From positions 1-48,394 of the forward strand of contig DATEUW010000021.1 of assembly GCA_035282925.1 (NCBI GenBank): a stretch of 48,394 nucleotides of DNA, read 5' to 3'. Made by a program: the position numbers. Positions 15,001 to 21,000 of this stretch are shown in pieces. The stretch's first letter is position 1. Each line of letters begins with the position of its first letter. This stretch comes from Candidatus Nanoarchaeia archaeon. Its GTDB lineage: Archaea; Nanobdellota; Nanobdellia; Pacearchaeales; GW2011-AR1.

Positions 15001-18000
15001 TTGCAATCATTCTTGGAGCTTATTTCACCGTTGTTGTTTCCATGCTTCCTCTCCTGTGGGCGGGTGCAGGTCTCCTGAAAGGTTTTGCCTTCACGACGTT
15101 GATAGGAATAACTGCAGGGGTTTTCATCACAAGGCCGGCCTTTTCAGACATGATAAGAAAGATGGAGGAACAAACTTATTTTTAGAAAGGCGTTTCATAA
15201 AGCATAAAAACGAAAAAATGCATTTCTTGTCATGAAGGACCAATTTTCCCAGGGAGGAAGGGATATAAAAGATATCTGGAGAAGAATAAAAAACCGTGAT
15301 TTTTCAGGAAACACAGGTCTCGTAGTAAAGAACAGCCTTTATCAGTTTTCAACAGGACTCGTTGCGAAAATCGGAGCCTTAATTTTTACAGTAGTTATTG
15401 CCAGGTTATTACTTCCAGAGCTTTTTGGCCTTTATAGCCTGGCACTATCCACTATCTTGCTCTTTGTTTCTATTTCTGACCTGGGTATAAATCAATCGAT
15501 AATAAGATTTATTTCCAAATCATCATCAGATAAAAGAAAAGAGAAGGCAGCAGCATACGCTTATTATCTATCCAAAATAAAGATAATCTTTACTTTTTTG
15601 GTGGCATTTGCTTTGACAATACTGGCAAAATTCATCTCTCAAAATTATTACCAAAAACCAATATTTTACGCTTTAATTGCCGGAGCACTATATGTTATTC
15701 TGGCAGGGATATCGAGCATTTTTCAATCATTTTTTCATGCTATTAACAATTTTAAGGTTCCCTTTTTTAAAGAAATTTTCCTCCAGGTTTCAAGACTTTT
15801 TTTAATCCCTTTGTTTATACTCATATCCTTGGCTAATTTTTCCTATGAAGTTGTTTCACTGATAATGATTCTTTCTCTAAGTGCCTTATTCCTGTTAACA
15901 ATAGTTTTTTTATTCTTTTTTGTAAGAAGGCTGGATTTTCTTAACCAAACACCAAAAAGACTGTCAAAGAAAGAGAAAAAAAGGGTAAATAAATTTACTT
16001 TTGAAATGCTTTTACTTGGAGTCGCGGGTTTAATTATAGGATATATTGATATAATCTTTTTGGGTAGGTTTGTTGACCCAGAATACATTGGGATTTATCA
16101 GGCGGCATTAAATTTTGCAATCTCATCCATCCCTTTAATTAACTTTTCAACTGTCCTATTTCCATTATTCAGCAAAATTTCCGGGGACAGGCTGGAGAAA
16201 GGATTTAATAGATCGTCTAAAATTACTCTTTTAGTATCTGCTTTTGTTTTTACAGCCACCTTTTTGTTATCCCCCCTAATAATTAAAATAGTTTATGGAT
16301 CGGCCTATATAGAAGCTATAACTTTGTTAAGAATCTTAGCTCTGCTTTCTGTCTTTCTTCCAATGTCTTCCCTATTCAGCTCCTATATAATTGCAAAAGG
16401 ATACCCCAAATTAGTGACTAATAGTCTAATCATCACAGCTGGAATTTATTTTATCATAAGTTATTTTTTAATAACTTATTTGCTGAAATTTGGTCAGAGA
16501 TATGCAATTATCGGAGCATGTATCGCTCTAGTAATGAGCAATTTTTTCTATATGATTGTTCTTCTGTTCAAAGCCAGGTCTTTAAAAAAGGCCTAAGTAT
16601 TTAATAATTTTCCCTACACATTCTTCGACAGATTCTCTTTCAGTTTCTATTATAATTTCTGGATTTTCAGGCGGTTCATAGGGGTTTTCTTTTGCAACCC
16701 CTATAAAATTTTCTATTTCTCCCGCAAGAGCCCCTGCATAAAGGCCTTTAGTGTCTCTTTTTGTGCACTCATCCATGCTGCACTTTACATAGACTTCAAT
16801 AAAACTCTCCCCCAAAATTTTTCTTGCTTCTAATCTGCTATCTTTGAAGGGAGAAATTATTGGTACCAAGATAAAATCATAATCTTCTTTCTCCATTAAG
16901 CAAATATCAGATATTAATTTATTATTTTTTTTAATATCTTCTGGACTAAAATCAAGATGCTTATGGACACCTGATCTTATCTCATCCCCATCAATTATTT
17001 TAATTTTTTCCCCTCTTTCTTCAAGCTTTTGCTTTAGTTTATCAGCAATTGTTGTTTTTCCGCTTCCAGACAGCCCAGTAAACCACAAAATCTTATTTTT
17101 TACTTCTACAAAAACCCTTTCACCATTCTTTATTTTTCTGATTATTAAATCAGAGATTTCAGGCCTCATGAGCCACTCCGGGGGTCTTACCCCATTTTTC
17201 AGCATCTCTCTTGCCTGTGTTCCCGAAATAAACTTTTTGAATTCTTCAGGATAATCTATGAATTCCGAGTTATGAAAATACCTTTTTTCTAAATCAGAAT
17301 AAAAAACTTCATCAAATTTTATAATCTCAATACCCAACTCTTCCTTGCTAAATTTGTCAAAGATTTCATGGGAGGCTTTTACTTGATAAAAATTCCCAAC
17401 ACCTGTATGGTCTCTCCCAACAATAAAATGAGAACATCCAAAGTTCTTTCTAATGAGCGCCGTAAATACCGCCTCCCTGGGACCCCCATATCTTGGATAC
17501 GCAGTAAGCGTACCAAAAACAACTTTTGAATTAGGATAAAATTCTTTAACCATTTTTTCGTATGAACTTATTACCACATCGGTCTCAAAATCTCCTTCTT
17601 TCTTCTTTCCAATTACTGGATGAAGGAACAATCCATCACAGAAATTTCTTTTTAAAGATTCTAGCTGGATAAATTCATGGCCCCTGTGTATTACATTTCT
17701 GGTATGGAATCCTACTACCCTCTTCCAACCCCTTTCAGAAAAGATTTTTCTTGCCTGTTTTGGAGTCAATTCATGAATTTTGTAGGCGGAACTCCTTTTC
17801 TTTAACAAAGTAATCTTCCCCCCCAAAAACCAATCTTTATTTTTCATAAACTGTATGACTCCGGGATGGTGCAAATCTGCTGTTCCAAATATCTTCTTTG
17901 CTGCCTCTTCTTTATCTACACGATACATCTCCGACAGGTGTAAAATTCCATAAACCTCTTGATTTAAAGAGAGCCCAATATTTTCGCCTTCTTTCAAATC

Positions 18001-21000
18001 CTGTTTTGTTTGTTCATTTACAGATAATACTATTGGGATAGGCCAGACCAACCCATTAGAGAGTCTCATATTTTCAACAACAGAATAAAAATCTTTTTTC
18101 TCCATAAATCCTTCTAGAGGACTAAAAGCCCCAGTAGCTATCTGTTCTAAATCCATTAAATCTTGTTCATTAATTTCAATTGTTTTTTTAGGGATGTCTT
18201 TCCAGCTAGAATCAAATCTTTCAACTAATCTCCCCCCATGGGGTTCTATTAGAAGAGTGGGGGTGCTATCTAAAAAGAGATAATTTGTTTCTTCTATCTT
18301 ATCTATGACCCCTGCTTTTTTACTTTTGTTAAGGAATTCAAATTGATTCATTATACTAATTAAAGTATTCACTGTCTCGATGGGGTGTTGACCCACTGCC
18401 GTTTCTTTTGTTAAAGCAATGCCTGTAGCACCATCCAAAATGGTGTTGACAATATCATTAACTTCTGCCTTACTGGGCTTTAACTCGAAAGCCATATGCT
18501 CCAGAGTATTCGTTGCAATGAATGCTTCTTTCCCCATATCCGCTACCTCCCTTAAAATGAACTTTTGGATAAAAGGAATTTTTTCAAATGCAACTTGGTT
18601 ACTTAAATCTCCTCTATCGATTAAAATGCCGTCAGAAGCTTTGGCTATCTCAAGAAAATTATCTAAGCCTTTTTTAGATTCTATCTTAGAATAAACAACT
18701 GCTTCAGGATATAATTTCTTGAATTTAACTACCTGTTCCGAGGACTCCATAAAAGATAAGGTGAAATGTAGAAGCTTATATTTTTTAGCTAATTCCACTG
18801 CTGCATAGTCTTTCTTGCTGAAAGGTGGCAGACTAAATGAAGGGCTATCTATTTGAACCGCCTTATTTCCTCCTATCTTCCCCTTTATGATGACTTTGCA
18901 TAAAACATATCCCTTGTCCAATGTGCTCACATCAAAAACCCTAAGCAATAGAGAATTAAAGTCTATTGAAACTAAATCCCCCTCCCGTAGTTCTTTAGCT
19001 ATTCCTGCTGGGTTCAAGAATAAATTCTCCTGATTGCAGTTTATGTTATTATCATGAATTTTTACAGTTGCTTCTTCTTCAAAAAATATTTCTTCAGTAT
19101 TCCCCGATCTCACTTGGCATCCTTCTGTGTCCAGTATTATCGGAACCCCATACCCTAAAAGGTCTTTTATTCTGTTTTCTATATCCTCCTCTTTGGTGTG
19201 GGATAAATTAATTCTGAAATAATCAACTCCTCTCTCTTTTAATTTACCCAAAACTTCCTGAGAATTTGATCCGGGTCCAATAGTGCATATTATTTTAGCT
19301 ATTCTCATTAAAAACCCTCATAATTGTAGAATTTAAACTTTATGATACTCAAGAGCGCTAAGTTTTCGTGGCTTGAATAATGGTATTAAGGGGCTCTTAT
19401 TCTTTAATTTTCATTCTTGAATATACAAACAGGTTTATTCTCATCCAAAAGTCTAAACCCTTCGTCAATTAGCTTACCCCTCAAATATGGGATATCAAAG
19501 TCAATTATTAAAAAATTACAATATTTTTTCAGCAACTCAATCTCACTTTCAATTAATTCTTCTTCATTCCCTTCAATATCACACAATAGATTAAATCTCT
19601 TTATTTTATAAGTTTTCATAATTCCCTTTAATGAGATTGCCTTTACCCTGACTTTTTTCCCTTGGACTTTTCCCCGAACCGATGAATTTCCCAAGCCAGT
19701 ATCCGAAATAATAAAATCAATTTTCCCTTTCTTTTTTGAATAAACTCTATTTAAGGGGATGATGTCTTTTTCGTTGTTTAGTGCTAAATTTCTATTTATT
19801 GTTCCCATTAAGGATGGATTTCCTTCAACTATTATATGTTTTTTTGTATGTTTGAATTTTCTCGCTAGCAAGGAAACAAATCCAATACATCCCCCCAAAT
19901 CAATAAAATCCTCTCCAGTTGGCAGGTATCTTAAAATTAAATCTCTTTCTGGGTCTTCCCAATGCTTTCCAAACCTCACCCCAAAATGGGAAAACCTTTC
20001 CTTAACCTGTGAGTTTTCAAGAGATAATTTAATTCCCAACAAAGTAGTTACTGGTTTCATAAATAATTTTATTCTCATAAATTATCATTTATCGAACGCA
20101 TATTTAATTTATTAATCTAACACTCCCATGATACCCCATTATTTTAACCAGTGACTAAGGTCTTTACCAATAAATTTACCAGTCACTAAAATTTCTTTCT
20201 TAAATCTATTATTTAACTTTTTTCTAATATCCGGCTTTAAAGAATATTTTCTTTGTCTTTGGGTTGTAAAATTTATAGCCGATTTTCTCATCTTATTAAT
20301 TTTCCCTTTTGGGATAATTGATTTTAAAAAAAGCTTGAATCCGGTGGGCAATTTCTCAAGAACCCATAAAAACCATTTATTTTTTAGATCCCTTGATTTA
20401 TTGTGTATCTCAAATTTAATTGGATGCCTATTATCGATTCTAAGAAAATCACATAACACGCTGTAAACTTTTTCAGGATTTTTTTCCATTTCGTCTAAAA
20501 AAATTATATTCACATTTTTCTTACCGAAGGCATCTAAATAATTTTTTAAATTCCTTGAAAATTTAAGTTTCTCCCACATTTTTTTAAGGTCTTCAGTATT
20601 CAAATTAATAGACTCTTCAAAAGGAATGTTGTTAGGGATATCCCCGTTTTTATAATAGGAATATGCTATCTCCATAGGATGTCTTAACAAAATTATTATT
20701 TTTGCTTCAGGATTAAACTTTTTTATTTCCTTCGGCGCTGTTTCGGACCAAAAATAATGGGATGCTTCACCCAGTATCTTTTTATTGCCAGCTTTTGCAA
20801 AAAGGGAGAGGTATTTCTTTTCATTTTTATGGAACTCTTTAAATGCAGGATTTGGCTCCTCTCCAAAAAAGTTAGGTCCTTTTACTTCAGACATGAAGAC
20901 ATCCGGATGCTGTTTAAGCCATTCATATAATGTAGTTGTGCCACTTCTCCCGGCACCCACAATGAACAAGTTTGGTCTCCTCATTTTTTCTTATAAACAT

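Follow-up and report, generated by a model that had tools for sequence, protein, structure and literature searches.

A pyruvate kinase barrel fused to ATP sulfurylase and APS kinase in an archaeal glycan island: a candidate PAPS synthase with a PEP-driven module

Several ways past the unfavourable ATP sulfurylase step of sulfate activation are known: pyrophosphatase, adenosine 5'-phosphosulfate (APS) kinase and the CysN GTPase. In fungal ATP sulfurylases a carboxy-terminal APS-kinase-like domain is present, but it is regulatory or structural and non-catalytic. The locus described here lies in a stretch of 48,394 nucleotides (the window) from a Candidatus Nanoarchaeia archaeon of the Pacearchaeales (assembly GCA_035282925.1, contig DATEUW010000021.1), and encodes a single polypeptide of 908 amino acids (aa) in which a pyruvate kinase (PK) barrel is joined to ATP sulfurylase (ATPS) and APS kinase (APSK). 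We give a probability of about 0.58 to the reading that this fusion is a single-chain synthase of 3'-phosphoadenosine 5'-phosphosulfate (PAPS) with a built-in ATP-regenerating module driven by phosphoenolpyruvate (PEP), and that it feeds a sulfotransferase.

The closest described systems each resemble a part of this protein. The Aquifex aeolicus SAT/APS kinase (2gks) aligns end to end with aa 375-905 (E 8e-97); it shares the PUA_2-ATPS-APSK order, the P-loop and the HxxH and GRDH motifs, and is also a Foldseek match. Compared with PAPS synthases of this type, the window protein adds an amino-terminal PK barrel of 350 aa, and has HTRN in place of QTRN and DIxxN in place of DRxxN. The best Foldseek matches for the combined ATPS and APSK part are the fungal ATP sulfurylases from Penicillium chrysogenum (1i2d, 1m8p) and yeast (1j70), which provide a precedent for accessory domains that modulate a sulfurylase; these enzymes have no PK module, and their kinase-like domain is non-catalytic, whereas the window kinase has an intact P-loop. 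The PK module, in turn, matches the complete A and B domains of Escherichia coli PykF and Staphylococcus aureus PK and shares all of their catalytic residues. It differs from canonical PKs in that the carboxy-terminal allosteric and tetramerisation domain is absent, ARGDLG is changed to DRGDLS, and T/E/Q stands where K+-dependent enzymes have T113/K114/E117 and K+-independent enzymes have L113/Q114/K117. The module is also fused or linked to sulfate-activation genes and not to glycolysis.

Two further systems bear on how the three activities might work together. Human PAPSS1 in vitro without PK/PEP regeneration accumulates ADP and makes almost no PAPS, and the authors' explanation is that regeneration relieves a dead-end APS kinase-ADP-APS complex (PMC9885120). 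The engineered PAPS cascades of that study combine the same ATPS, APSK and PK activities, but as an artificial mix of separate enzymes, whereas here the linkage is natural and either covalent or through an operon. In the sulfazecin nonribosomal peptide synthetase (NRPS) SulI, an embedded APS kinase domain serves the sulfotransferase SulN (PMC11298585). SulI places a dedicated PAPS-making domain inside a sulfonation cluster, as the fusion that stands beside NRPS genes in Flexibacter and Flavobacterium (see below) probably does, but SulI contains only the APS kinase domain, and no PK or sulfurylase is described there.

A reading of the window made from sequence only had proposed that the three enzymes share one continuous frame and that the amino-terminal third consists of PK A/B domains without the C-domain. 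The open reading frame (ORF) listing, Pfam and NCBIfam all bear this out (Table 1). Neither junction shows a stop or a frame break, and all four Pfam domain matches are far above the gathering thresholds. PF00224 is matched by aa 2-313 over essentially the full model (positions 2-328 of 328, E 4.4e-56), while the PK_C domain (PF02887) has no Pfam match in the 908-aa protein; the PK match stops at aa 313-330, and PUA_2 comes next. Among the NCBIfam models, those for ATP sulfurylase (TIGR00339, 360.1 against a cut-off of 322.95; NF003166, 437.4 against 387) and for apsK (TIGR00455, 170.8 against 138.7) are exceeded. The pyruvate kinase equivalog TIGR01064 reaches 241.9 against a cut-off of 306.4, with aa 4-326 aligned to positions 3-337 of 476, and the remaining NCBIfam PK models are likewise under their cut-offs. 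The bifunctional SAT/APS kinase model NF004040 scores 447.7, under its cut-off of 669, with positions 34-564 of 572 aligned.

The predicted structure agrees with these assignments. An AlphaFold2 model of the whole chain, with a 57-sequence family alignment as input, has a mean pLDDT of 91.6 and a pTM of 0.80. It contains a barrel with a beta-rich insert at aa 66-154, corresponding to the lid, and two linker helices at aa 309-326 and 334-341, with pLDDT of 83-86 over aa 321-350. In Foldseek, the sulfurylase part matches 8a8d and 1v47 with a TM of 0.92, and SAT-APSK structures also match, while the PK part superimposes on PykF and PKM2 with a root-mean-square deviation (rmsd) of 2.7-3.4 A. Residues 1-331 align to solved pyruvate kinases with E ~1e-44, and the PK module is 29-30% identical to solved PKs at ~3 A rmsd. 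No PDB structure among the Foldseek matches listed covers all three modules.

Two findings rule out an assembly or frameshift artefact. Exactly this 908-aa sequence is recorded on 18 contigs, with independent entries (AKQ03316.1, HKZ33965.1 and the read-derived SRR3990172), and the PK+PUA_2+ATPS architecture, with or without APSK, recurs in all 120 homologue clusters listed, at 46-68% identity. Two ENA assemblies split the gene away from the junctions (495+413 aa and 104+746 aa), and these splits are taken to be errors in those two assemblies.

The PK catalytic residues are conserved throughout the family. Residue equivalences, in E. coli PykF numbering, were taken from a pairwise alignment to the window protein, and conservation was computed from the gap-free rows of each column among 149 representatives clustered at 50% identity, which include standalone forms and are mostly 35-55% identical to the window PK module. 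PykF R32, N34 and S36 (the same numbers in the window protein), D66 (window D60), R73 (R67), K220 (K208), E222 (E210), D246 (D234) and E314 (E302) are 100% conserved; K156 (K149) is K or R, and T278 (T266) is T or S. In addition, T67 (T61) is present in the window protein and is counted among the family-conserved catalytic residues. The catalytic, metal and phosphate ligands are kept in 120 close and 149 distant family members, and because this conservation extends over 149 diverged representatives, the PK module is probably an enzyme and not a scaffold.

The module also carries the subfamily signatures DTEGxQ[IV]R and [IL]DRGDLS. It departs from the monovalent-cation classes of PK (class definitions from PMC8835810 and PMC4374775). 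The residues T61/E62/Q65/S68, which stand at rabbit positions 113/114/117/120, fit neither the K+-dependent nor the K+-independent signature; across the family, position 114 is E or Q, and position 117 is Q in 132 of 142 non-gap rows. At rabbit residue 117 (PykF E71), Glu marks K+-dependent and Lys K+-independent enzymes (PMC8835810). Crenarchaeal PKs with Ser, Val or Arg at this position have been characterised and are active and K+-independent, and Gln occurs in the same crenarchaeal branch (PMC4374775). Gln at 117 is therefore compatible with activity, yet it puts the PK module outside both canonical classes.

Subfamily-specific variation is also seen in the other two modules. When the sulfurylase is compared with 2gks and 8a8d, HTRN replaces QTRN, as it does in 118 of 120 close homologues and in 76 of 82 PK-linked ATPS domains. 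The window protein has the other two sulfurylase motifs, HRGH and GRDH, and the motifs are invariant or near-invariant in the 120 homologues. In the kinase, the P-loop GLSGSGKTT and the DGD..R, ISPF and KGLY motifs are conserved in the homologues, while the canonical APS-binding motif LGFSxxDRxENxRR is not matched, the window protein reading FSPEDIKKNNKL. All of the motifs quoted in the sequence-only reading are present, and the FSPEDIKKNN divergence that it pointed out is real and is a family trait, with Ile for the canonical Arg in 48 of 50 long (fused) forms. The variant DIxENN(R/K)L, at window aa 786-798, was compared across loci L010-L089, L005 and the window; every PK-associated APS kinase examined has it, whether fused, separate and downstream, or fused to PK, the exception being L077 with Val. 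In the P. chrysogenum and human APSK structures, the canonical Arg contacts the phosphosulfate.

Canonical versions of these enzymes are found next to the variant ones. The motif DRxxN(I/V)RR is kept by ATPS-like+APSK genes in five of the same loci, and L005 has a further standalone kinase that keeps it too. Of these five neighbours without PK, four (in L045, L061, L062 and L076) are without the RN..H..H and GRD motifs, which suggests that the PK-linked sulfurylase is probably the working, and only active, one in those loci. Such neighbours resemble the sulfurylase-inactive Thiobacillus denitrificans APS kinase (3cr8). Since each of the three modules carries subfamily-specific variants and some of these loci also contain the canonical versions, the PK, ATPS and APSK modules appear to have co-evolved as a set that is separate from housekeeping sulfate assimilation. 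In L005, the standalone canonical APS kinase (9397-9972), encoded upstream of the fusion, shows an apparent 7-residue tandem duplication (VSFISPYLVSFISPYI) across its ISPY motif.

The family is large and phylogenetically broad. The PK module alone was searched against 1.84 billion cluster representatives, and the best 150 relatives comprise 83 PK+ATPS proteins, 3 PK+ATPS+APSK, 2 PK+APSK, ~40 standalone barrels of 325-360 aa without the C-domain, two proteins with an amino-terminal nucleotide-pyrophosphatase-type domain and one PK+CBS protein; only ~3 are canonical-length PKs, at the bottom of the list with 32-35% identity. In the species genomes of GTDB, a scan with two peptide patterns specific to the subfamily identified 388 species loci that encode the same PK subfamily. 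Locus-level counts (architectures, neighbours and taxa) cover the best 80 of these 388 loci, with flanks of +/-10 kb: 66 are PK+ATPS, 10 PK+ATPS+APSK and 4 PK alone. PK+ATPS is thus the commonest form and apparently the core architecture. An APS kinase gene lies directly downstream in 21 of the 66 PK+ATPS loci and anywhere in the locus in 29, and tblastn detected no hidden APSK in the short-form loci and no second PK or APSK in the window.

Among the best 80 loci, the archaeal carriers belong to Pacearchaeota, Woesearchaeota, Nanohalarchaeota, Micrarchaeota, Methanosarcinales and Thermoplasmata, and the bacterial carriers to the Candidate Phyla Radiation (CPR), Planctomycetota (one carrier chromosome being 7.5 Mb long), Chloroflexota (with one contig of 10.4 Mb), Omnitrophota, Elusimicrobia, NC10 and several Proteobacteria. 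Two named carriers, Flavobacterium sp. Leaf82 and [Flexibacter] sp. ATCC 35103, are apparently cultured isolates. The sequence-only reading had explained the fusion by the needs of an energy-poor archaeon with a small genome, a rationale that does not hold given the same subfamily in Planctomycetota, Chloroflexota and Flavobacterium. It had also known of no PAPS synthase with a PK-like module. The architecture proves to be common in the databases, where the homologue clusters are named only "sulfate adenylyltransferase" or "pyruvate kinase" and the window protein itself is 'Pyruvate kinase' in UniRef. Full-text searches of the literature turned up no account of a PK-sulfurylase fusion; pyruvate kinase in the examined matches is an assay coupling enzyme. 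As far as we found, the PK-sulfate-activation family is catalogued in databases but apparently functionally undescribed.

Several rarer domain combinations occur in the family. P0210 (1151 aa) joins a type I phosphodiesterase/nucleotide pyrophosphatase domain to PK, PUA_2 and ATPS, and P0247 (786 aa) joins such a domain to PK alone; the pyrophosphatase-type domain might remove pyrophosphate (PPi) or 3'-phosphoadenosine 5'-phosphate (PAP). P0152 (478 aa) combines PK with CBS. In P0150, P0189, P0190 and P0211, the PK barrel is followed by a carboxy-terminal extension of 160-305 aa that resembles a degenerate ATP sulfurylase remnant, in which the ELTP...RGW.RV and NFGCSH/GCTH framework is kept and HTRN, HxxH and GRDH are lost. 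Pfam gave no match in these four extensions; BLASTP identified that of P0190, the one of the four that was checked, as a degenerate ATPS remnant (24% identity, E 2e-5).

The closest split loci indicate how the third module was acquired. In these loci the PK-ATPS gene ends in ...GEKVFVE followed by its stop, and the APSK gene starts with MTKVLWFTGLSGSGK, stop and start overlapping as ATGA; the window protein is in frame at the same junction and reads ...GERVFVE-VKNK-ILWFTGLSGSGK. Because the split loci show an overlapping ATGA where the window reads through, the three-enzyme form is an in-frame fusion of a conserved, translationally coupled pk-atps and cysC pair. A rough neighbour-joining tree requires ~12 changes between fused and split states by parsimony, which suggests that fusion or fission of the long and short forms happened repeatedly. 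A clade of ~33 sequences in this tree, which holds all of the CPR-named matches, is uniformly of the long form.

The fusion gene stands in a low-GC island that is dedicated to glycan biosynthesis (Table 1). The GC fraction is 0.31-0.35 over 16-36 kb, against 0.39-0.43 in most other parts of the window. The genes of the island encode a Wzx-type flippase, at least six methyltransferases (FkbM and others), glycosyltransferases of the GT4 and GT2 families, epimerases/dehydratases, a polysaccharide deacetylase, a FemAB-like protein and an initiating-type glycosyltransferase family 4 transferase, in addition to AglB. This gene set suggests a complete-looking protein or surface glycosylation pathway whose glycan is heavily methylated and sulfated. 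The island was possibly acquired horizontally. Outside it, the window carries ordinary archaeal chromosomal genes (S4e, S5, SecY, Rpb3, IF-2B and SecDF).

Table 1. Features of the fusion gene and of the surrounding island in the window
Feature	Position	Strand	Basis or remark
Whole ORF, 908 aa, PK(A+B)-PUA_2-ATP sulfurylase-APS kinase	16582..19308	-	ORF listing, Pfam, NCBIfam
Pyruvate kinase barrel, aa 2-313; B 'lid' ~aa 68-160; no C-terminal regulatory domain	18370..19305	-	PF00224
Linker between PK barrel and PUA_2, aa 314-353, mostly helical	18250..18369	-	no Pfam domain; continuous frame
PUA_2 domain of ATP sulfurylase, aa 354-503	17800..18249	-	PF14306, E 9e-50
ATP sulfurylase catalytic domain, aa 514-724; FHTRN, HRGH, GRDH	17137..17769	-	PF01747, E 3e-73
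ATPS-APSK fusion junction, aa 736-739, VKNK	17092..17103	-	comparison with closest split loci
APS kinase module, aa 739-887; GLSGSGKTT, DGDEIR, ISPF, KGLY, variant FSPEDIKKNN	16648..17094	-	PF01583, E 4e-44
Low-GC glycan biosynthesis island holding the fusion gene	15232..37565	.	Pfam on 20 neighbouring ORFs; GC profile
Sulfotransferase, two genes upstream of the fusion, same strand	20139..20984	-	Sulfotransfer_1 / Sulfotransfer_3 matches
Wzx flippase gene, convergent to the fusion	15232-16596		3' ends overlap by 15 nt (16582-16596)
AglB/STT3 oligosaccharyltransferase	33602-36505		within the island

Of particular interest is the sulfotransferase gene of the island. Its product keeps both PAPS-binding motifs, the 5'-phosphosulfate-binding GxxRSG (5'-PSB) and the 3'-phosphate-binding R101-x7-S109 (3'-PB), which are invariant in an alignment with the sulfotransferases of related loci and are kept alike by those beside short and long forms. 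The window sulfotransferase is the probable consumer of the PAPS, and the simplest inference is that the fusion enzyme supplies PAPS for the sulfation of an N-linked or surface glycan. The association extends to the family as a whole: with an iterated sulfotransferase profile, 48 of the 80 loci were found to contain a sulfotransferase-like ORF; in 45 loci it is no more than 3 kb from the PK gene, and in 26 it is the immediate neighbour of that gene (raw counts). Standalone PK barrels form divergent pairs with sulfotransferases inside glycan clusters, and one PK+APSK fusion likewise lies in a glycan cluster with a sulfotransferase. In L005, a 1.03 Mb contig with the long form closest to the CPR-named matches, the fusion is flanked by genes for a sulfotransferase, a canonical APS kinase, a CysQ-type phosphatase and CysDN-like proteins, and CysQ-like PAP phosphatases occur in some of the loci.

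A second type of setting is found in Flavobacterium sp. Leaf82 and Flexibacter sp. ATCC 35103, where the PK-ATPS-APSK gene lies between large NRPS genes (L056 1816-17486 and L057 1817-12781) and adjoins the gene for a protein of 285-290 aa named 'sulfotransferase family 2'. For the 285-aa upstream ORF of the Flavobacterium, neither Pfam nor a PDB sequence search gave an informative match, and its sulfotransferase label rests on motifs and on the NCBI name of the Flexibacter orthologue. The N-sulfonated monobactam SQ 28,332 has been described from Flexibacter sp. ATCC 35103 (PMC9248904), and the PK-ATPS-APSK locus of this strain is probably the monobactam cluster, with a dedicated PAPS supply.

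A dissimilatory role, in which the sulfurylase runs in reverse, is rejected because the neighbouring genes are those of sulfotransferases and of glycan or NRPS pathways and not those of APS reductase or Dsr. Other fusions in these neighbourhoods join APS kinase to a sulfotransferase, or APS kinase to a CysQ-like phosphatase in both orders (L075 12185-13642, L055 5628-7025, L059 12231-13562), which indicates that the enzymes of the PAPS cycle are extensively domain-shuffled.

These observations can be combined in a simple scheme. The ATP sulfurylase module would make APS from ATP and sulfate, and the APS kinase module would convert APS to PAPS with release of ADP, while the PK barrel would most likely move phosphate from PEP to ADP, yielding pyruvate and ATP. 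Two ATP would be spent per PAPS at the synthase, and regeneration at that site would keep ATP high and ADP low, so that the dead-end APS kinase-ADP-APS complex is avoided. The sulfotransferase two genes away would then use the PAPS to sulfate the glycan of the AglB island. The inferred parts of this scheme are the transfer of phosphate from PEP to ADP, the link between this transfer and PAPS synthesis, and the role of the glycan as sulfate acceptor. Recycling of ADP by PEP as the force behind PAPS synthesis, which the sequence-only reading had also proposed, remains the most economical interpretation, in view of the PK+APSK fusions and of the behaviour of PAPSS1 (PMC9885120).

Several observations, however, weigh against a scheme of this kind. 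The PK subfamily has conserved changes beside the catalytic residues (PykF K68 to E/Q, E71 to Q, A243 to D, G248 to S and Q279 to N), and the canonical-length PKs at the bottom of the match list revert at nearly all five positions. The changes from QTRN to HTRN and from DRxEN to DIxENN also fall at substrate-binding positions, and the changes in all three modules could reflect altered substrates. Within the flanks, 37 of the 66 PK+ATPS loci have no APS kinase, and there are standalone PK barrels that stand beside a sulfotransferase but have neither ATPS nor APSK in the vicinity. ATP sulfurylase makes PPi and no ADP, and the PK of a PK+ATPS protein would be only an ATP supplier or would serve a separate APSK. 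Because the commonest form releases no ADP, recycling of the ADP left by the kinase cannot by itself explain the family, although the kinase-less and standalone loci may simply have the missing genes elsewhere in the genome.

It is thus conceivable, though unlikely, that a catalytic PK barrel, the HTRN sulfurylase and the DIxENN kinase carry out altered chemistry, with another acceptor for PEP (APS, PAP or a nucleotide), another nucleotide or oxyanion, or a transfer of the sulfuryl type. The substitutions beside catalytic residues in all three modules fit such a change, as do the PK+ATPS and standalone loci that pair with sulfotransferases of the 3'-phosphate-motif type and have no APS kinase within 10 kb, and the canonical APS kinase of L005 that adjoins a fusion already holding a variant kinase. 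Pyruvate kinase is also said to catalyse sulfuryl transfer from sulfoenolpyruvate (Peliska and O'Leary, 1989). A more specific version, which we regard as quite unlikely, is a distinct, co-evolved sulfate activation in which PEP is the direct donor for 3'-phosphorylation of APS or for re-activation of PAP, or in which another nucleotide or oxyanion is used; PEP as direct donor would explain why short and standalone forms stand beside PAPS-type sulfotransferases without an APS kinase. The full PK catalytic set is retained, however, including the ADP/ATP-phosphate ligands R67 and K149, and ordinary active PKs also vary at rabbit position 117. Moreover, since APSK is fused or directly downstream in 31 of 76 PK-ATPS loci and PK+APSK fusions exist, PK does not generally replace APS kinase, and for the remaining loci an APS kinase could be encoded elsewhere in the genome.

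The idea that the barrel has no catalytic role and instead serves the sulfurylase as a scaffold, or as an allosteric PEP/ADP (energy-state) sensor, draws on the regulatory APS-kinase-like domain of fungal ATP sulfurylases (1i2d, 1j70), on the position of the sulfurylase where the PK C-domain for tetramerisation and allostery normally is, and on the barrels with a degenerate ATPS remnant, which show that domains do decay in this family. In those degenerate cases, however, the decaying part is the ATPS and not the PK, and the conservation of every PK catalytic and metal/phosphate residue in 149 representatives points to selection for catalysis, which makes a scaffold or sensor very unlikely. Most improbable, and already largely refuted, is a housekeeping glycolytic PK that was merely fused or misassembled onto a PAPS synthase without functional coupling. 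The UniRef name, the compact genomes of DPANN archaea, in which gene fusions occur, and the single-copy status of archaeal PKs in one survey (PMC4374775) would fit that view. Against it stand the recurrence of the subfamily in 388 GTDB species loci from many phyla, large-genome bacteria included, its distinct signature with canonical PKs only at ~32-35% identity, the absent regulatory C-domain, the sulfation, glycan or NRPS setting in place of glycolytic genes, and the identical protein on 18 contigs. A PAPS synthase with a PEP-driven ATP-regenerating module is accordingly the reading that we prefer for the window protein.

If this reading is confirmed, hundreds of species would overcome the unfavourable sulfurylase step in an additional way that has gone unrecognised, through a dedicated PK paralogue that regenerates ATP at substrate level within a biosynthetic enzyme. 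Confirmation would also correct a systematic mis-annotation, as "pyruvate kinase" labels can inflate the glycolytic capacity in DPANN and CPR reconstructions, and would point to sulfation of surface glycans as a widespread feature of the carrier lineages. The fusion would further provide a natural one-protein PAPS generator for the chemoenzymatic sulfation of compounds such as heparin or chondroitin. The named carrier strains should make the PAPS synthase/PK reading directly testable.

Two other features of the window were observed. Directly after tRNA-Arg(CCT), ARAGORN lists a 90-nt 'tRNA-???' (12613-12702) whose anticodon call is abnormal in having two bases; it may be an intron-containing or otherwise atypical archaeal tRNA. 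Positions 879-2501 encode a transporter of the CstA family, which comprises carbon-starvation and peptide/pyruvate transporters; the proposed PK reaction would yield pyruvate as its by-product.

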